64,000 nucleotides of DNA, taken from IMG/VR virus record IMGVR_UViG_3300045995_000065, positions 1-64,000 of that record. The stretch is one strand, 5' to 3'. Shown piece after piece: positions 6,538 to 23,734 of this stretch; position 1 is the stretch's first letter; every line of letters starts with the position of its first letter. The notes under the pieces are model-generated. The model had not been told where the DNA came from. It was given only the letters and a program-made list of their open reading frames with translations, and searched no databases. The translations under genes were made by a program, and so were the position numbers. This stretch comes from a virus.

Positions 6538-6888
6538 ATGGCAACTCTAGAAACACGAACCGCAGTACTCGAAAAAATCGCAGAGTCACACGACAAACGC
6601 ATTGGCGATATGGAAGATTTCCAGCGTAATGTTGTGGATCGTCTTGACCAAAAGATCCAAATGGACTTGGCATCACAAATCAGCTTAGAGCGAACTCTAA
6701 CTCGTGCTGTTACGAGTTTAGACACATTATCTGTTGCTGTTAAAGACGCAGGGATTAAAGCTGACGAAGCATCAACGATGGTTAAGAAACACGAGACAAT
6801 TGGGTTAACCATAATGAAGGTTGGCACTATTCTTGCGGTAGTGATCTCGGCTGGATGGGCGGTTTTAAAATACGTTCTTCCACAGTAA
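6538..6888 (+). CDS. Coiled-coil protein with C-terminal TM helix (XhlA/holin-like architecture)
   Basis: LETRTAVLE heptads; VGTILAVVISAGWAVL TM; late promoter TAAATA at 6511. Confidence 0.7.
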   Translation: MATLETRTAVLEKIAESHDKRIGDMEDFQRNVVDRLDQKIQMDLASQISLERTLTRAVTSLDTLSVAVKDAGIKADEASTMVKKHETIGLTIMKVGTILAVVISAGWAVLKYVLPQ

Positions 6889-6896
6889 GGAGTCTT

Positions 6897-7370
6897 ATGC
6901 TAGTCCAATTAATTTACGTCTCGACACCAGTTGCGGAAAAGATAGGGGAGGTTAATGCTTCCTTGCCTGGTAACCAACTACGTAACAAAGAACGTGGCAT
7001 CAGCGGTTTAGTGCTGTCTCACCCTAAGTTTTACTTGCAAATTTTAGAAGGTGAACGCATTGCGGTAAGCAAGTTATTTCACAAGATTATGTGCGACAAG
7101 CGCCACCAAGACGTTACTATCATACGCTTCCAAGAAGCCATGCGCTCTGACTTTTCTCGTTGGGACTATGCTATCATTGACGAAAATCTTGACACGGACT
7201 TTTACGAGAACATACGTGATTTACTTGATTTTGAAATCGACTTTAAGCGAGATATGTCAAGCTCGTGTGCAATGGCTGTATTGCGCAGAGCATTTGCAAT
7301 TATAACAATGAAGCAAATTCCCAACCGCCGCTCAACTGATATTAAAGACTTACCTCAGGTCCGTGCTTAA
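6897..7370 (+). CDS. BLUF-domain (blue-light FAD sensor) protein
   Basis: LIYVS, RN..GISGLVL..FYLQILEGE..V..LF.KI..DKRHQDV..FSRW; AAGGAG RBS before ATG 6897. Confidence 0.88.
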   Translation: MLVQLIYVSTPVAEKIGEVNASLPGNQLRNKERGISGLVLSHPKFYLQILEGERIAVSKLFHKIMCDKRHQDVTIIRFQEAMRSDFSRWDYAIIDENLDTDFYENIRDLLDFEIDFKRDMSSSCAMAVLRRAFAIITMKQIPNRRSTDIKDLPQVRA

Positions 7371-8643
7371 GGAAAACTTCTGACTGCGGCGGTAGCGTTG
7401 GGACAAAGTAACTCAATTGGTCAACTCCAATTTCGTCTAGTACCATTATAGGTAAATTACTCCAGTGGGCATACTCAGGCCAATCACTGCCTTTAACAGT
7501 GTCGTAAAACATCTTCCATTCAGCATCTTTTAATTCTGTTTCTTTTATTAATGCTCTAGCAACTAAGCCCTCACGCATCTTGCACACATCCGCAGTGCCA
7601 CGATTCAGCAATGAGTTCATGAGTGTTGGCACATTAAATTTAGTCGCAGTATCGTTTACGATTTTTATTGCGCCTGCTGCAAGCAATTCAAATTGTTTTT
7701 TGTTTTGCTCAATGACTTCTGATATCTCGTCATCATTTTCTTGATGATGCAAAATCCAATCTATGTTGCTCAGTGCATTGTCAACTTGTGCCTTGGTAAG
7801 TTCATTACCTATTTCCACTGTGGAAGGGAAAAACTTAGTGAATGCTGAGACTCCGATGGACTCTAAATATTCATGCGTACCAGGGATCGCAAGCAGTACA
7901 AATGGGTGACTGAATGCGATTGCCTTCCATACCTTTTCTGTTATGGTGGGCATAGTTCGAGTGGCAGATTCAGACACTAAACTGACGCGGGTATCAGTGT
8001 ACATTGATGGGTCGACAATATCACAAAAAAATTCAAAATCTTTAAACCCAACACGAGTGGTTGGTATGTTAGTGGGTTCCAAATCAGTTATGCCACGATG
8101 CTGCAAAAGATATTGCATTAGCTCGCCGTCGTCTAAATCCCATTGGGTGATAATGTTTTTACTCTCGTCGTCGAATTTTTCATTCGCATACATGAACGAG
8201 TATTTCAACTTAGATATAATACCAGACTTAACCGCAGATGCCAGCGCACCAATTCGGTTTAAGTAATGCATTTTTCCAGTTAAGAACAATGCTTTGTCAG
8301 CATTGCGATTCCACTCAGTGTCTGGTGGGTTAGACAACACCTTGACAAACATTGCCCAGTAACTAATATAAACGATGTCTATACCTTCCCACAGGTGCGA
8401 AAATTGCTTGTACTGATCGTCAGCGATGACTGTTAGTTTCTTGTTTTTATTTTTGGCCAATTCACGTATGCATGTGAGTGTTTCTATTACCTCTGGGGTA
8501 CCAGGAAAGAACTCGTAAATTAAAAAAGCTATAACATGGTCTGCCTCACTGTTGGAGTCAAACCATGCTTCTAGCTCAATGCTTAATAGTTTTGGGTGGG
8601 CGAAACACATAAAAGAATGTAATTCCAGCAATGACGTTATCAT
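7342..8643 (-). CDS. Glycosyltransferase-like protein
   Basis: SLVSES..ITEKVWKAIAFSHPFVLLA..EYLESIG (GT-B-like C-terminal motif); paralog of 13945..15093. Confidence 0.55.
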   Translation of the reverse strand: MITSLLELHSFMCFAHPKLLSIELEAWFDSNSEADHVIAFLIYEFFPGTPEVIETLTCIRELAKNKNKKLTVIADDQYKQFSHLWEGIDIVYISYWAMFVKVLSNPPDTEWNRNADKALFLTGKMHYLNRIGALASAVKSGIISKLKYSFMYANEKFDDESKNIITQWDLDDGELMQYLLQHRGITDLEPTNIPTTRVGFKDFEFFCDIVDPSMYTDTRVSLVSESATRTMPTITEKVWKAIAFSHPFVLLAIPGTHEYLESIGVSAFTKFFPSTVEIGNELTKAQVDNALSNIDWILHHQENDDEISEVIEQNKKQFELLAAGAIKIVNDTATKFNVPTLMNSLLNRGTADVCKMREGLVARALIKETELKDAEWKMFYDTVKGSDWPEYAHWSNLPIMVLDEIGVDQLSYFVPTLPPQSEVFLKHGPEVSL

Positions 8644-8673
8644 GCTGTATTTATTTTCGCCACTATACCCGTA

Positions 8674-8919
8674 TTATTTTGCAGTCTTAAAATACTTAGC
8701 AAAGTCTTGGTTCACAAACTTTTGCGATGCTGTCACGGTTTCGGAATACAAAGACGTACCAACATCAGTGAAAGCCTTTACAGCTTCCTTAGTGTAAGTT
8801 GCTTGCGTGTCGACAAACTTGTTCATTGCCTTTGCAGCCGCTTCATTCTTGACGAATGTAGTAACGAATTGCTTCTTGGACTTAACGACGGAATTGATGA
8901 AATCTTCTGGTGTAAACAT
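8674..8919 (-). CDS. Phasin-like (PHA granule-associated) protein
   Basis: 81 aa amphipathic helical protein FINSVVKSKKQFVTTFV..MNKFVDTQATYTKEAVK; AGGAG RBS; PhaR-type box upstream. Confidence 0.6.
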   Translation of the reverse strand: MFTPEDFINSVVKSKKQFVTTFVKNEAAAKAMNKFVDTQATYTKEAVKAFTDVGTSLYSETVTASQKFVNQDFAKYFKTAK

Positions 8920-8948
8920 AATATTCTCCTTAGACGAATGTTTAATAC

Positions 8949-8988
8949 TATGCAGCCCACGGAATGTAGCACTGCACAAAGTATTTAT
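8949..8988 (-). promoter_or_regulatory. Late promoter plus conserved 5' leader hairpin (shared with Hsp20 gene)
   Basis: ATAAATAC-TTTGTGCAGTGCTAC-ATTCC-GTGGGCTGCATA. Confidence 0.75.
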
Positions 8989-8993
8989 GTATT

Positions 8994-9010
8994 ATGCTGC
9001 ATTGCAGCAT
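8994..9010. promoter_or_regulatory. Perfect palindrome, PhaR-type operator candidate
   Basis: ATGCTGCA-T-TGCAGCAT (CTGC-N3-GCAG) between divergent promoters. Confidence 0.65.
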
Positions 9011-9078
9011 TTTTAGCAAGTATTCTGGCTAAATTGCTTTGCGCTAAATACTTGCTACATCATTTAAGGAGAATATAG

Positions 9079-9345
9079 ATGTTTAAGAAAATTATTGACG
9101 CTACAGTTGCGTTTTTCAAAGGACCACAAATTGCGCCAGTTGTTCCTGAAGCACCTTACAAATTGGAGGCACCAGTTGTTGTAGAAACTCCTATGGTAAA
9201 TCCAGTACCCGAAGTAGCACCAGTGGTTGAGGCAGTTAAAAAGCCACGCAAGCCAAGAGCACCTAAAGTCGAAGTTAAACCAGTCGCAAAAAAGCCAGCT
9301 GCTAAAAAAGCGCCGGCTAAGAAAACTACTAAGCCTAAAGCTTAA
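9079..9345 (+). CDS. Lys/Pro/Ala-rich histone H1-like protein
   Basis: KKPAAKKAPAKKTTKPKA; AAGGAG RBS; TAAATA at 9045 within inverted repeat 9014-9057. Confidence 0.75.
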   Translation: MFKKIIDATVAFFKGPQIAPVVPEAPYKLEAPVVVETPMVNPVPEVAPVVEAVKKPRKPRAPKVEVKPVAKKPAAKKAPAKKTTKPKA

Positions 9346-10298
9346 TCTAGTATCCCAAAGTTTGCCCAATTAGCGGCACCCAGACAAACCCAACCCATTG
9401 GTCCGCCCAAGGTTGGGTTTGTGTTGAATACAATGTGACCTTTTGTGCTGGTGTATGATGGCGGCTGATTTGCCGCACTCAGCTTAACACTGCCTATACG
9501 CAAGTCGGATATTTCAGTTGTGCCATCAGTATTCAATGTGATGTTATGTTTGTTGTTGGAAGATAATACCACAGCTTGTGCACGTGGTGTACCAATCTTA
9601 GCAACGCCCTCTTTATCCTTAGACACAGTGACTTCTACTTCTTGATCCCAAATACTGAGTGCAGCAGATGGCTCTAAAGTATTGATGCCCACTCGTTTCT
9701 TCGTTACGTACAGTGTATTGGCAAGCACTGATTCTCCGTCTACTTGTAATTCACGCAACGCTCCTACTTTTTGCAAAAAGCTTTCGGTAATATCAAAGCC
9801 AAGCATCTTGCCTTCAATTACCGTAACACCATCAATAGTAATCTTCTTTAAGTCGATTCCGTCTGCTTTGATAGTGTCGGTTACTTTTTGCGTGAAGCCT
9901 GCAAACATGTCAGCTTCCAATGATGCTTGAACATTAGCAGTAACCGTTGATGACAATTGTTTGTAAAACACAGAATCTTCTGGTACCGGGCCTTCAACAA
10001 TGAACTTGCCCTTGACAGTTAAGTCCTTGGTAAGCAAATTGTTTTCCACGACGGTAACATCGTCCATCAGTGTAAGTACGCATTCAGATGCACGATCGTC
10101 TATACCAGTAGAAGAGAAGTTAGCAATGATGCCGCCTTGAATCTGCTCGCCAGTAATCGTGATCTCGCGCTGTCTAACCGCTACAGCAGGAATGCTTGCA
10201 GTTGGATATTTTTCGCGCTTAAGGAGTTTTGCTGTAACAAAATCCTCGATGTATTGTTTAATCTCGTCTGTCAGTTCTGTTTGTGTTGAATCGGTCAT
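9342..10298 (-). CDS. Probable virion structural protein (beta-rich)
   Basis: 318 aa; RVGINTLEPS and GHIVFN..GWVC..W..FG motifs typical of phage fibre proteins. Confidence 0.6.
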   Translation of the reverse strand: MTDSTQTELTDEIKQYIEDFVTAKLLKREKYPTASIPAVAVRQREITITGEQIQGGIIANFSSTGIDDRASECVLTLMDDVTVVENNLLTKDLTVKGKFIVEGPVPEDSVFYKQLSSTVTANVQASLEADMFAGFTQKVTDTIKADGIDLKKITIDGVTVIEGKMLGFDITESFLQKVGALRELQVDGESVLANTLYVTKKRVGINTLEPSAALSIWDQEVEVTVSKDKEGVAKIGTPRAQAVVLSSNNKHNITLNTDGTTEISDLRIGSVKLSAANQPPSYTSTKGHIVFNTNPTLGGPMGWVCLGAANWANFGILD

Positions 10299-11034
10299 AG
10301 GTCTCGTCGAATTTAATGCTAACTACGTGTTCGTAATTCTTCTTGATAGGGCTCTTGTACATCAAATTCTTGTGTACAATGAAGTCGTCTGCGCCTGCGT
10401 CCATACTAAACTTTGCTAACTGTTTGAAGTACATTGTGTGGCGTTTGAATGAGCCATACACTGTCAACGAATCAGTCGCATTGTTAATCTCGTATACTTT
10501 GGATTCCCATTGTGTACGACTTGTTGTCGTCCAATTATGGAACTCATTGAATACCAAACTGTCTGCACCGTTACGGATAACTGCTGGTGTCGAAAACTCT
10601 CTATCTTTGAAATCTTGATTTTTGTAATCGCGTAATGTACTTATCACAAATTCTTTAGCCAAAGAACAAATCTTGCTCACTTTGTCAATTTGAGTTTGTG
10701 AATTGGTGGCATAGGTGAAATACTCATCAGCAGCCACGACGACATCATAAGACTTTTCAATCGCAGCCAATTGTATGTAGGTGTACTTGACTTTTTTCTC
10801 GTCTAAATAAGCACGGGCAGCATCACTTATCTCAGTGACGAATATTTCCTGCTTTACATTACTGCTAATAATTGCTGGATTAAATCCGCAAAAAAGCACA
10901 GTACCAGGAATGAAATTGTAGTAGTCATAAACACCGTCTAGTATAGCTTGTTTTTTAAGTATGATCTCGGCTGCTTTGCTCGAAGCCTTTAATGCGGATA
11001 AGTTAGCGTCAGTATAGTTTGTAAAATCAGTCAT
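10258..11034 (-). CDS. Hypothetical protein, possible degenerate SAM-methyltransferase fold
   Basis: 258 aa; VLFCGF, YDVVVAADEY; late promoter at about 11060. Confidence 0.5.
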   Translation of the reverse strand: MTDFTNYTDANLSALKASSKAAEIILKKQAILDGVYDYYNFIPGTVLFCGFNPAIISSNVKQEIFVTEISDAARAYLDEKKVKYTYIQLAAIEKSYDVVVAADEYFTYATNSQTQIDKVSKICSLAKEFVISTLRDYKNQDFKDREFSTPAVIRNGADSLVFNEFHNWTTTSRTQWESKVYEINNATDSLTVYGSFKRHTMYFKQLAKFSMDAGADDFIVHKNLMYKSPIKKNYEHVVSIKFDETYDRFNTNRTDRRD

Positions 11035-11062
11035 GCCATTATTGTAATAGTTGTGTAACTAT

Positions 11063-11980
11063 TTATGGCGAGCGCACTAAATCTAACGTAACGCAATGGA
11101 AGCCACCGCCCAACGTGCGTGAATGACGCAATTCAAGGGGAATAGATTCAATTTTGTACTTCTTTAGTGTTTGCATTAACGATGATTGTTTTTTATCTAC
11201 TATTACCAAATTAGGATTGACCACTAGCATGTTCATGGCAATCCATTTGCTTGCGTAAGGATACTCGTAAAATTGTTGCGGGACTACATCAGAATGTGAC
11301 ACCCAAATCTTTTCCCAATTTTCAAAAGCCTTAGGAACAGTTGTTGGATGCACACGGGATGCATTGAGCATTACGAGACCTTCACGTAGCGGCACTATAG
11401 TAGAGTCAATATGTACGCCGCTGTAAAAGTTACAAGTTTCTATTGTAACATGGGGGAGGATGCTTTGCAACCAGTCAGCAGCCGCTTTGTTGCCACTTGC
11501 GCTTTCCAGCACGACATAGGTGTCATTTAGTCTGCATACGTTAGCAGCATCAAGAACCATACCTTTGTTGCGCGGCATTTCGTAAACTACGCCACGCTTA
11601 GTGACATCTTTGAGTGCTCTGGTTTCCATGTCCCTGCATGGATACATCATTACTGGGTCAATGATCTTTGTGCCCGCAATGAGCAGCCTGTCTCGCGGAC
11701 AGTAATTGTACATACCACCTTCATAACCAAAGTCCATTTCTGCGGGACGCAGGACTTCTACGCCAAGGTTGCGAAGTGTGGTTGAGAGGGTTTCTAAGTC
11801 CTCGTTTGATTCGTCAACAACGTGCTTAGGTACACGACCAGACGGAACAGGAGTTTCGTGCCAGGTTGTTTTATATTTTTCTTCAGCAAAGACTGGATCT
11901 TTGGTGGGCCAATGTGCGTGGGTGGCATCACCTACTACGCAAACTTTAAGAGGGTCCCATTCGTTGTGTGAGTGTATCAT
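11063..11980 (-). CDS. Amidinotransferase (glycine/inosamine-phosphate family)
   Basis: SHNEWDPLK, YCPRD, DAAN, HIDST, RTLGGGFHCVTLD (catalytic Cys). Confidence 0.92.
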   Translation of the reverse strand: MIHSHNEWDPLKVCVVGDATHAHWPTKDPVFAEEKYKTTWHETPVPSGRVPKHVVDESNEDLETLSTTLRNLGVEVLRPAEMDFGYEGGMYNYCPRDRLLIAGTKIIDPVMMYPCRDMETRALKDVTKRGVVYEMPRNKGMVLDAANVCRLNDTYVVLESASGNKAAADWLQSILPHVTIETCNFYSGVHIDSTIVPLREGLVMLNASRVHPTTVPKAFENWEKIWVSHSDVVPQQFYEYPYASKWIAMNMLVVNPNLVIVDKKQSSLMQTLKKYKIESIPLELRHSRTLGGGFHCVTLDLVRSP

Positions 11981-12222
11981 TCGTATTTCAACTTTGCCCA
12001 GAGGCGGTGAGTTTCGTTTGGTATATGGAAGCTTGCACAGTTTCCCTTTTCGTCGGTCCAGTGGTTAAAGAACTCTGCTTGCACTTTTTGCATTTCGCAC
12101 CAATGGTGAAATTCATCAAACCATGCTGTAATGCCATCACGATCGCAGTTCATTTTAGCCACTATTATTTCGTGAGTGGGAACATTTAGTCGAAGCTCAA
12201 ATGGCGTTAATGTCATCGCCAA
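11977..12222 (-). CDS. Small hypothetical protein (F..LK[WY] family)
   Basis: WC..F...HRLWAKLKYE. Confidence 0.55.
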   Translation of the reverse strand: MAMTLTPFELRLNVPTHEIIVAKMNCDRDGITAWFDEFHHWCEMQKVQAEFFNHWTDEKGNCASFHIPNETHRLWAKLKYE

Positions 12223-21087: not shown

Positions 21088-21404
21088 TCTTCTTCCAAAA
21101 GTTCTTCGAGTTCAGGCTTCGTAACAAACTTACCACCAAGATCAGGGAACCATGTTGTATGGTACTCCTTGCCACCTAGCTTGTAATAGTCTGTCATTGA
21201 GTGCTGGTTGTTTGTTGATTTGAACGGGTCGATCATCTTGAGCAAAAGCATAATGTCTGTGTACTCTTGCCCTTCAATCTTGCGCATAGGAGGACCCATT
21301 ACACTGCGCAAAAACGCTTTGGCCTTAGCCGGGTCATCGCGCATTTCTTTACGGTGTCTCGCGAGACCTTCTTTGAGTAGAGTTAACTCGCTCTTTTTAG
21401 ACAT
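21084..21404 (-). CDS. Hypothetical protein
   Basis: ORF coupled to clpS. Confidence 0.55.
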   Translation of the reverse strand: MSKKSELTLLKEGLARHRKEMRDDPAKAKAFLRSVMGPPMRKIEGQEYTDIMLLLKMIDPFKSTNNQHSMTDYYKLGGKEYHTTWFPDLGGKFVTKPELEELLEED

Positions 21405-21714
21405 CAGCTTCAAGCTTGATAGCGAGAGGGAAACCGTTGTTACGTGCAAGCAATGTTACTTCCACGCCTTTTTGTTCTGCCAATTCGTATGGCAATGTTG
21501 CGGCAACTGCGGCGCCGTCTTCATGCACCTTTGTCATAATGTGCTCTGCCGTAACATCATCGTGGCCAAATACTGCCTTCAATGTTTCAATAACGAACTC
21601 CATTGTGGTCACATTGTCATTGACATAAATGACATTGAACAATGGTGGCGGTTGCACATCAGTGCGAGGTTGAATACGAACTTGATTTTGGATTTTGGTT
21701 GATGTAGAGGACAT
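21397..21714 (-). CDS. clpS: ClpS N-degron adaptor
   Basis: VIYVNDNVTTMEFVIETL, VHEDG, ELAEQK, FPL. Confidence 0.93.
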   Translation of the reverse strand: MSSTSTKIQNQVRIQPRTDVQPPPLFNVIYVNDNVTTMEFVIETLKAVFGHDDVTAEHIMTKVHEDGAAVAATLPYELAEQKGVEVTLLARNNGFPLAIKLEADV

Positions 21715-21728
21715 ATTTGAATCTTAAA

Positions 21729-21786
21729 TGGGGAGGAAAAGTCCCTCCCCTTGTTGCATTATAGCGTTTTACTTGTTAAAAGTCAA
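21729..21786 (-). terminator. Hsp20 terminator hairpin overlapping a sigma70 promoter for clpS
   Basis: GGGGAGGGACTTTTCCTCCCC-ATTT; TTGACT-17-TATAAT at the 3' end of Hsp20. Confidence 0.6.
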
Positions 21787-22218
21787 CGCGATTTTGCGTG
21801 GCTTCTTCTCTTCTGGTACTACGAGTTCCAGAGCAATAGCCAAAATGCCATTTGTGACATTAGCGCCACGAATTTCTACGTGTTCCGAAAGATTGAACAC
21901 ACGTTCGAAATTACGAGTGGAAATGCCTTTGTGAGCATAAGTAAGTTTTTCCTTATCCTCTGTGGCCTTTTTGCCGCTTACGTGCAAAGTGCCGTCCTTC
22001 AATTCTACGTCGAGTTCGTGCTCACCAAAACCAGCGACTGCAACTTCAATAACTGTGTTCGTCTCATCGATGTTTACAATGTTGTATGGTGGGTAGTTCT
22101 CGTTCGACTTGGCGGAATTGGCGAATGTACGATTTAGCTCATTGAACATTCGGTCAAAGCCGATAGCTGTACGATGAATTTCAGGTAGGTTAAGGGTGTG
22201 AATAGAAAAGTTTGTCAT
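21769..22218 (-). CDS. Small heat-shock protein (Hsp20, IbpA-like)
   Basis: AIGFDRMF, YPPYNI, AVAGF, HKGISTRNFERVF, NGIL. Confidence 0.95.
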   Translation of the reverse strand: MTNFSIHTLNLPEIHRTAIGFDRMFNELNRTFANSAKSNENYPPYNIVNIDETNTVIEVAVAGFGEHELDVELKDGTLHVSGKKATEDKEKLTYAHKGISTRNFERVFNLSEHVEIRGANVTNGILAIALELVVPEEKKPRKIALTFNK

Positions 22219-22223
22219 GTTGT

Positions 22224-22287
22224 TCTCCTGTTAAGCAAGTATGACTTTAAATGCAGCCCGATTATTCGGCACTGCACAAATATTTAT
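22224..22287 (-). promoter_or_regulatory. Late promoter, bulged-G leader hairpin and ROSE-like RNA thermometer
   Basis: ATAAATA-TTTGTGCAGTGCCGA-ATAA-TCGGGCTGCA..CTTGCT-TAAC-AGGAG. Confidence 0.75.
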
Positions 22288-22543
22288 TTTACACTCTTTT
22301 GCATTATATGCAACTATTATGGCTATTTTACTACTGTAAACTTTTCAGTAAGTTTTGGTGGGTTCATAATGAAGAACGACAAATCTACAGGATTCGAAAA
22401 ATGGTAATTAAGCTCGTAACCAGCAAGGTCAACTTCAAATTTGATTTCGTAATACGTTAGCCATGTAAGCATTTCACTTAGTACCATCATGCGCTTTGCC
22501 TTCCGCATTGACCCGTTTGGAATAATGAATTGAATATAGTCCA

Positions 22544-23734
22544 TCAATGTGCATCGCGTACAGTTTGTTCCGTGATCTCTAAGGCAGCGATTCCTTGCGC
22601 TTTCATCTCAGTTAAAGCGTACATATAGGGCATTAACGTGCGTTCCAGGATGCTTTTCAGCCCTCTTGCGCCCGTGCCCTGCTCGTGTGCTAACTCTGCA
22701 CAAGCTTGTATTGCACCGTCTGTGAATTTTAATTCTACGTCGTCAGACTCAAAGTAGAACTTCATCTGTGCGAGTAAGTTGTTGCTTGGTTCCTTAAGAA
22801 CACGAACAAAGTCTTCTACTGTTAGCGCATCAATTGGTACTGCAATAGGGAAACGACCAGTGAACTCTGGGATCATACCAAACTTGATAAAGTCATCAGG
22901 AATGAATGCAGCCGTGTTTACTTTGGTCGCAGTGTTACCAAATCCAATAGCAGAACCTTTTTGTCTACGTTCCACGATCTTGTCAAGGTCAGAAAATGCG
23001 CCGCCCGCAATGAATAAGATCTTGCTTGTGTCAATCTCAACCTGATCCATGGCAGGATGCTTCTTACTGCCGCCCACGCTTACTTTGCATATAGTGCCTT
23101 CTACCAATTTTAGTAATGCTTGCTGGACACCTTCGCCAGACACATCACGGGAGATACTTGCGCTCTCAGACTTCCTGCCAATCTTATCAACTTCGTCTAA
23201 GAAGACGATTCCGTGTTGGCATCGTTCTACATCATTATCTGCTGCACTTAGTAGGCTGCTAACGACACTTTCAACATCGTCGCCCACATACCCTGCTTCA
23301 GTTAGTGTAGTCGCATCTGCTACGACGAAAGGAACATTGAGGTAACGTGCGATTGTCTTAGCAAGCAATGTTTTGCCTGAACCTGTTGGCCCAAAGATAA
23401 GGATGTTAGACTTCTCTAACTCAACAGGGGACTCGAAGTAAATGCGCTTATAGTGATTCACCACGCCCACAGCGATAGCAATCTTTGCTGCATCCTGTCC
23501 GATAACGTACTGGTCAAGATAGGCTTTGATCTTCATCGGATCTAAAGCCTTCGTGATCTTTTTATCTTTGCGTAGAGCATCGTTGTGCTCTTTGTTTAGT
23601 ATGCTTGCACATAGTTCAATGCACTCGTTACAAATTCCCGCATCATTTGCGACAATAAGTTTGTCAACGTCTGAGCGGGACTTCCCGCAGAAGTTACAGT
23701 GAACTAATGGTGTCAGTGACAGATTTGAGTTCAT
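22544..23734 (-). CDS. clpX: ClpX AAA+ unfoldase
   Basis: C4 zinc finger CNFC..CNEC, GPTGSGKT, TEAGYVG, DEVDK, RDVSGEGVQQ, IGF loop, GARGL. Confidence 0.97.
   Translation of the reverse strand: MNSNLSLTPLVHCNFCGKSRSDVDKLIVANDAGICNECIELCASILNKEHNDALRKDKKITKALDPMKIKAYLDQYVIGQDAAKIAIAVGVVNHYKRIYFESPVELEKSNILIFGPTGSGKTLLAKTIARYLNVPFVVADATTLTEAGYVGDDVESVVSSLLSAADNDVERCQHGIVFLDEVDKIGRKSESASISRDVSGEGVQQALLKLVEGTICKVSVGGSKKHPAMDQVEIDTSKILFIAGGAFSDLDKIVERRQKGSAIGFGNTATKVNTAAFIPDDFIKFGMIPEFTGRFPIAVPIDALTVEDFVRVLKEPSNNLLAQMKFYFESDDVELKFTDGAIQACAELAHEQGTGARGLKSILERTLMPYMYALTEMKAQGIAALEITEQTVRDAH

Follow-up and report, generated by a model that had tools for sequence, protein, structure and literature searches.

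A divergent pair of small phage genes is, in our reading, placed under an operator recognized by a regulator of the bacterial host. The pair, genes A and B, lies on a stretch of 64,000 nucleotides (nt) of viral DNA, hereafter the window, which forms the initial 64 kb of the linear 72-kb IMG/VR record IMGVR_UViG_3300045995_000065, and a perfect 17-bp palindrome, box 1, is found between the two genes. We consider it probable (roughly 0.6), judging from sequence comparison, that this gene pair stands under a host PhaR-type operator and is hence gated by the polyhydroxybutyrate (PHB) status of the host. That gene A encodes a true phasin and gene B a tether is a weaker claim than PhaR gating, possible and at best evenly balanced. 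A preliminary description of this DNA, made from its letters, had placed gene A on the minus strand and gene B on the plus strand, diverging around a perfect palindrome, and all of these elements were recovered in the window and its list of open reading frames (ORFs).

Box 1 agrees closely with published PhaR operators. It matches the palindromic PhaR consensus of R. eutropha, given as YTKNTGCRNYGCANMAR in PMC12849132, at 15 of 17 positions, and the two mismatches are the outermost ones; according to the same source the phaP1 sites lie adjacent to the -35 box and about the start of transcription. Box 1 also contains YGCRNYGCR, which PMC12542648 presents as the core of an S. meliloti PhaR palindrome validated by electrophoretic mobility shift assay. 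A palindrome of this size is unremarkable in itself, and it is the match to the host motif and the conservation in related phages that exceed chance. Perfect palindromes with 8-nt arms and spacers of 0-5 nt number 11 in the window, where 20 shuffles gave 6.25 on average (range 1-14), and the short core CTGCANTGCAG, with at most one mismatch, is not enriched (4 copies against 3.75 expected). The full 17-mer is unique in the window even at up to three mismatches.

The host motif was taken from Polynucleobacter, which was chosen because one contig carrying a gene A homolog is binned into a Polynucleobacter metagenome-assembled genome (MAG). PhaR (PF07879) is present in 28 of 31 Polynucleobacter genomes, and 22 Phasin_2 loci were located in five of this genus. 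The 52 regions upstream of phaR and phasin genes are rich in TGYTGC-N3-GCARYA boxes, and their most enriched gapped palindrome is TGCA-N1-TGCA, seen 16 times against 0.17 expected. A weight matrix was built from 32 distinct host sites, drawn exclusively from Polynucleobacter phaR and phasin promoters, with the consensus ATGTTGCAATGCAACAT. When the window is scored with this matrix, box 1 ranks first at 23.4 bits, followed by a runner-up at 13.2, and none of 200 shuffled windows reaches its score (23.44). Scoring of the flanks alone gives box 1 a value of 8.88, as against -0.19 for the next best among the 27 TGC-N3-GCA cores of the window. In three Polynucleobacter genomes the strict form of the box occurs 11, 23 and 12 times (both strands), compared with 0, 0 and 2 occurrences of a control pattern, and these sites include phaR and phasin promoters. 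Two of the Polynucleobacter genomes each have a pair of strict boxes separated by some 2.1 kb (G030:1531491/1533625 and G006:14048/16178); situated away from the mapped phaR and phasin genes, they probably mark further members of the regulon.

Conservation of the palindrome upstream of homologous phage genes had been named beforehand as a check, and the palindrome was found in 15 of 29 related loci. These loci, 3-6 kb in length, comprise 27 viral loci and two MAG contigs with gene A homologs at 39-88% identity. In the fifteen (L002-L015 and L029) the best matrix match of the whole locus falls 87-121 nt upstream of the gene A homolog and scores 15.5-23.7 bits. The arms of the box are conserved while its three central bases vary (ATT, GAC, AGT, CCT, GGT, ACT), and between the window and L002 a symmetric change of C/G to T/A leaves the palindrome intact. 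Among the phage records, G000, G103 and G104 carry a perfect box solely at the gene A promoter, and the related complete genome G102, of 338 kb, has it at the same place with one mismatch. The search of four phage records, complete G102 included, yielded no PhaR homolog, and searches of the phage records for the PHB depolymerase families PF10503 and PF06850, for Phasin_2 and for PhaR were likewise negative. A recurring near-box in G102 and G103, TGTTCCATTGCAACA, was dropped; we judged it to be coding sequence because it lies in a stretch conserved between these two records, with no ATG-started ORF listed alongside.

Further features accompany the promoter in the related loci. In two clades a conserved micro-ORF of 17-24 amino acids (aa), beginning MQPYTVDELEFIN... 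or reading MWPYTVDEL.FIN.G, intervenes between the promoter and gene A. It is located some 70-75 nt ahead of gene A in L003-L015 and immediately ahead of it in L016-L027; the window has none. Directly upstream of the boxed promoter in L003-L007, L014 and L015 is a 363-aa ORF, which by eye is a candidate S-adenosylmethionine synthetase (MetK-like).

The placement of box 1 also resembles that of a PhaR operator. It covers the spacer and the -10 element of the predicted gene A promoter, TTGCTA-N17-CATAAT, and lies 5 nt upstream of ATAAATACT; as far as predicted promoters can tell, it is thus positioned on or beside the core promoter, as PhaR operators are. In L003-L015 the box fills the interval between the two elements of TTGACA-N17-TATAAA, a near-consensus promoter, with a second box beyond the -10 element. 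The intergenic region further carries the motif TAAATACT, once toward each gene. This motif has nine copies in the window against 2.64 expected, a count that none of 100 shuffles reaches, and by our reading of the contexts seven of the nine are correctly oriented and lie within the 62 nt that precede an ORF start. The comparison with T4-type late promoters concerns the TATAAATA-like element alone, and TAAATACT is plausibly a phage-specific promoter element of the -10 type. Taken together, the agreement with the published consensus, the top host-matrix score, the conservation upstream of gene A homologs and the overlap with a sigma-70-like promoter argue for the PhaR-type operator that the preliminary description had proposed. 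The layout of the locus is given in Table 1.

Table 1. Features of the divergent locus, with positions in the window.
Feature	Position	Strand	Description
Gene A	8674..8919	minus	81-aa ORF; ATG at 8919, stop 8674-8676; Shine-Dalgarno AAGGAG; basic helical hairpin
Gene A 5' leader	8920..8979	minus	predicted stem-loop at its 5' end, about 8948-8979
Box 2	8965..8979	minus	TTGTGCAGTGCTACA; near-match GCACTGCACAA at 8969-8979; weak PhaR-like site or 5' arm of a hairpin
TAAATACT promoter-type motif toward gene A	8980..8987	minus	-10-like; resembles T4 late promoter
Sigma-70-like promoter TTGCTA-N17-CATAAT	8991..9019	minus	9/12 positions match; predicted
Box 1	8994..9010		perfect 8-1-8 palindrome ATGCTGCATTGCAGCAT = ATGCTGCA-T-TGCAGCAT; candidate host PhaR operator
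TAAATACT promoter-type motif toward gene B	9045..9052	plus	26 nt before gene B ATG
Gene B	9079..9345	plus	88 aa; K/P/A tail; AAGGAG ribosome-binding site; ends ...KKPAAKKAPAKKTTKPKA

The window is a fragment of a phage that encodes ribonucleotide reductase subunits, a DnaB-like helicase and tail-fiber proteins. CheckV estimates the source record to be about 20% complete, so the phage is probably very large. Its G+C content is 44%, varying between 41 and 47% along the window, and the stretch is present in river, pond and wetland metagenomes. Cupriavidus, which the preliminary description named for fusion experiments, is doubtful as a host because its genomes are high in G+C, a poor match for a phage of 44% G+C, and because the phage is found in freshwater habitats. 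A large freshwater phage with a Polynucleobacter-like host fits better. The phage Hsp20 gives no host signal, being 40-43% identical to Polynucleobacter homologs that are present in 5 of 41 genomes. No tRNA genes occur in the 64-kb window, blastn of positions 7000-12000 returned no match in the phage collection, and no RNA runs are listed among the sequencing runs that contain the stretch. Logan contigs over 8600-9400 show no differing letters. Elsewhere in the window, a gene at 6855-7370 on the plus strand encodes a protein with a BLUF blue-light sensor domain (PF04940, E 1.2e-18; phrog_19899).

In addition to box 1, the preliminary description had pointed to a second near-match in the leader of gene A. 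This near-match is indeed present; its role as an operator is ambiguous because box 2, to which it belongs, also forms the 5' arm of a leader hairpin common to gene A and hsp20. With the host matrix box 2 scores 8.2 bits, rank 10 in the window, and it resembles the host box TGGTGCAGTGCAACA of Polynucleobacter phasin promoters. The gene A leader folds at -15.9 kcal/mol (z -1.97), and the leaders of gene A and hsp20 both fold into a 5' hairpin of about -16 kcal/mol with z about -2. A hairpin stands at the same place in L001, with both of its arms changed (CAG/CTG to CGG/CCG). The hsp20 gene (21769-22218, minus strand; PF00011) has a promoter and leader that nearly duplicate those of gene A, with ATAAATA followed by GTGCAGTGC...GGCTGCAT. 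Box 2 is therefore at least partly the arm of an RNA or DNA hairpin.

Several observations were made on these leaders and their surroundings. At 22251-22313 on the minus strand, ATAAATA of hsp20 is followed by the hairpin GTGCAGTGCCG...CGGGCTGCAT; ahead of this promoter and leader stands another perfect palindrome, distinct from box 1, TTGCATATAATGCAA at 22299-22313. In L016-L027 the corresponding position of the hsp20 leader is taken by a hairpin that differs in sequence and is succeeded by a conserved CTTGCTTAACAGGAG, and the hsp20 leader hairpin could serve as an RNA thermometer or a stabilizer. The gene belongs to a proteostasis cluster at 21397-23734 on the minus strand, which encodes ClpX (22544-23734; zf-C4_ClpX and AAA_2), Hsp20 and ClpS (21397-21714), together with a 74-aa ORF without a family match. 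In three independent runs (X5, X7 and X8) the Logan contigs stop within the gene A leader, at 8918-8971, where the assembly graph may be split by the repeat that this leader has in common with that of hsp20.

Gene A, described beforehand as phasin-like, is a member of a protein family. An exhaustive profile search collected 242 clusters of small proteins at E <= 1e-3, and the ESM clusters nearest to gene A are all viral. A strong member of the family was found in one of 101 Polynucleobacter genomes, where it is carried by the small binned contig mentioned above, itself probably of phage origin. The family apparently consists of uncharacterized, phage-borne, small helical-hairpin proteins. Weak matches to Phasin_2 (PF09361) appear in 9 of 127 aligned members at E <= 0.01, the best at 1.2e-4. 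The nearest ESM clusters with a name are Phasin_2 (0.88) and PHB_acc (0.86), scores at which they are leads only, and the PHB_acc lead was not confirmed by hhalign of the family against Polynucleobacter PhaR (0.75%). Against 29 diverse phasins hhalign gave 31.8% at a score of 28.8, against seven short phasins 54.6%, and against 14 short phasins 84% (score 37.3, E 7e-6). The 14 were picked after the first alignment, so we take the hhalign results as moderate evidence only. Controls, reversed as well as 30 block-permuted, had a mean score of 16.1 (standard deviation 2.9, maximum 21.5). The register of the alignment is constant, with the segment FVDxQxxYTKxAVK laid against the central phasin helix.

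The AlphaFold2 model of the gene A protein (predicted local distance difference test 86.4) is all-helical, with helices at residues 4-22, 26-69 and 74-80, and the hydrophobic moment is 0.35-0.50 in several 18-residue windows. An amphipathic all-helical fold is present in the model, a feature that does not discriminate between families. VIA-align superposes the model on the solved phasin 5ip0_A, which we take to be PhaP of Aeromonas hydrophila, with a root-mean-square deviation of 2.2 Å over 70 residues (Z 6.5), and a VIA-wide search returned generic helical hairpins only, the best at Z 7.8. Among the three best BFVD neighbors are proteins of uncultured phages annotated in UniProt as "Phasin" (E 5.9e-3) and "Phasin domain-containing protein" (E 1.5e-2, 35% identity). 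A sequence search of the PDB with the family profile yielded only a de novo designed helical protein (E 0.0056).

Gene B adjoins gene A as its conserved partner. Its product is composed of an N-terminal amphipathic or hydrophobic helix, which in some homologs is transmembrane, an invariant YK.E, a linker rich in P, V and E, and a basic tail rich in K, P and A. The tail, KKPRKPRAPKVEVKPVAKKPAAKKAPAKKTTKPKA, is of a Lys/Ala/Pro-rich, histone-like kind conserved across 14 homologs, and many unrelated contigs match it. The preliminary description had likened this PAKK tail to PhaM and PhaF. The likeness holds for composition and architecture, in that PhaM, with its PAKKA motifs, and PhaF likewise join a hydrophobic or amphipathic N-terminus to a histone-like K/A/P tail according to the review PMC9049629; it does not extend to homology in family searches. 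Gene B and four homologs have no Pfam, NCBIfam or PHROG match and no homologous granule-binding domain, and the L029 homolog matches the histone-H1-like HC2 at E 7.9e-5, below the cut-off. The window and 17 of the 29 loci have a B-type gene adjacent to A, divergent from it in L001, L002, L028 and L029 and directly downstream of it in L003-L015. L002 bridges the two forms of B because its protein has both the APYKVE and the CGCGRS..G.CVGLHKL motif. The Cys-rich motif, CGCGRS(S/P).G.C(V/M)GLHKL..(A/T)EW in full, is found in the B-type proteins of L002 (2516-2842) and, downstream of A, of L003, L007, L009 and L015; it has no Pfam match and may bind metal.

A number of observations weigh against a PhaR-gated phasin locus, and those concerning the operator may be taken together. 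The best of the 200 shuffles came close to the score of box 1 (22.95 vs. 23.44). Twelve of the 29 loci (L016-L027) have no box, with best scores of 8.6 bits or less, and L001 and L028 carry TGC-N4-GCA variants in which the spacing is broken, all of which speaks against PhaR control being universal. The link to Polynucleobacter is a single 6-kb binned contig, and a near-identical twin of that contig was binned into a Haliscomenobacter MAG. Box 2 lies in a hairpin common to hsp20, a gene without a PhaR box, and a phage-modified RNA polymerase may read the gene A promoter via TAAATACT. The palindrome could be a real operator that serves a phage regulator unrelated to PhaR, or some other host factor, its likeness to PhaR sites being due to convergence or left over from a captured promoter. 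Phages often carry small repressors of their own, the boxless loci and the two spacing variants would fit such an arrangement, and the phage-type promoter suggests transcription directed by the phage. We nevertheless regard this explanation as improbable, since box 1 tops a matrix trained solely on host phaR and phasin promoters and fits the published PhaR consensus cited above, since each phage record has one perfect site, unlike what a phage regulator with a regulon would leave, and since the boxed gene has phasin-like signals, a pairing that we would not expect from coincidence. Far less credit is due to the idea that AT-rich intergenic DNA has by chance produced an inverted repeat without function. 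As the shuffles indicate, chance alone yields perfect palindromes with 8-nt arms, and the short core is not enriched, but in 15 of the 29 loci, diverged as they are, the box keeps its position, its arms conserved around variable centers, and its host-matrix score is 10 bits above that of any other site in the window. These loci are not near-identical copies (A proteins 39-57% identical; five aligned intergenic regions with 62% mean column identity), and a chance origin is very unlikely.

Other observations run counter to the phasin assignment. The gene A protein of the window has no Pfam, NCBIfam or PHROG match, and PF09361 does not appear even at E <= 1. The hhalign figure is 0.3-2% against the phasins of Polynucleobacter, the presumed host, and 1.3% against 15 long phasins, and the 84% obtained with short phasins rests on a post hoc subset. 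Foldseek found no match in the PDB at E <= 1e-3, its top row being the ESCRT-III Snf7 hairpin at E 2. The phasin 5ip0_A ranks only 30th, tied with many unrelated helices, and the fold is that of a generic helical hairpin. The comparison of 8674-8919 with phasins that had been suggested at the outset gave no match by hidden Markov model and a superposition of low rank, and the phasin identity stands on the weak Phasin_2 matches of the family and on hhalign (31.8-84%), with the unmatched window protein and its generic fold on the other side. It may be that gene A encodes a helical hairpin that does not act on granules, working for instance with Hsp20, ClpX and ClpS in proteostasis, or at the membrane, in which case PhaR control, if real, would just time its expression. 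This would suit the 12 loci L016-L027, in which hsp20 and a DUF1127 gene precede gene A, the common design of the gene A and hsp20 promoters and leaders in the window, and the generic, Snf7-like outcome of the fold search. Set against it are a profile-profile score against phasins far above the controls, the Phasin_2 matches in 9 of 127 members and the neighbors named Phasin in BFVD. Small heat-shock proteins, moreover, are reported to coat PHB granules in recombinant E. coli. We hold this alternative to be unlikely, if less so than a regulator other than PhaR.

Under the preferred reading, in which host PhaR gates the pair, we infer the following course of events, from PhaR binding and PHB gating to the binding of granules by A and B, a benefit to the phage and the host identity. 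As long as the cell contains no PHB granules, free PhaR, the PHB-responsive repressor of the host, would occupy the 17-bp palindrome, and gene A transcription would be blocked because the palindrome overlaps the spacer and the -10 region. In a PHB-loaded host, PhaR would be drawn to the granules and the gene A promoter would open. The gene A protein, whose small amphipathic helical hairpin has a remote likeness to the Phasin_2 core helix, would bind the granule surface, and gene B, with its hydrophobic N-terminus and histone-like K/P/A tail, would act with it. Together they might remodel or tether the host carbon store, or help to mobilize it, during infection. In a fuller version, which we put forward only tentatively, these phages have plugged A and B into the PhaR regulon, sensing PHB granules and then making a coat, with A as a minimal phasin, and a tether, with B as a PhaM-like protein with a DNA-binding tail.

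In many aquatic and soil bacteria PHB can account for much of the dry mass, and to our knowledge its exploitation by phages is essentially unstudied. A full-text literature search on phasin or PHB together with phage, which did not cover PhaR together with phage, found no paper on phage phasins by title or abstract. If the fuller version is true, the A/B pair would divert the host carbon store to the production of virions, and would be the first case of a virus both sensing a storage organelle of bacteria and manipulating it. A phage promoter under host PhaR control would offer a directly testable case of a virus that reads the carbon-storage state of its host, and would give an initial function to the gene A family, whose small phage proteins form more than 240 clusters. 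Compact granule-binding tags and PHB-responsive promoters for bioplastic-producing strains could also be derived from it.

The candidate operator can be compared with the PhaR/AniA operators of R. eutropha, S. meliloti, Paracoccus and Rhodobacter. It has the same TGC-N3-GCA core with a single central nucleotide and the same placement with respect to the -35 and -10 elements and the transcription start, ahead of a gene that encodes a small protein of granule type, as at phaP and phaR, where two sites per promoter are often found. The same motif occurs at Polynucleobacter phaR and phasin promoters. Box 1 differs in lying in a phage genome that has no phaR of its own and in being combined with the phage-type TAAATACT. 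Gene A, compared with Phasin_2 proteins (PF09361), including the short alphaproteobacterial type, and with 5ip0, is equally small, basic, all-helical and amphipathic, and its motif F-V-D-x-Q-x-x-Y-T-K-x-A-V-K aligns with K..E..Q.dyaK.a.e of the central phasin helix. At 81 aa it is shorter than the sampled phasins (109-209 aa), and it has no similarity to the phasins of the presumed host. Gene B has the same architecture as the granule-nucleoid tethers PhaM of R. eutropha and PhaF of Pseudomonas putida, as portrayed in PMC9049629. It differs from them in that homology is not detectable and the likeness is confined to low-complexity sequence. PhaM and PhaF are also far longer than gene B.

The closest parallel for the regulatory wiring is found in cyanophages, whose genes carry sites for host nutrient regulators, namely PhoB pho boxes and NtcA sites, so that such wiring is a known idea. 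In those phages, as in the locus described here, a phage promoter is connected to a host transcription factor that responds to nutrient status. Here the signal would be PHB status, conveyed through PhaR, and the gene placed under its control would encode a phasin-like structural protein instead of an enzyme or a transporter.

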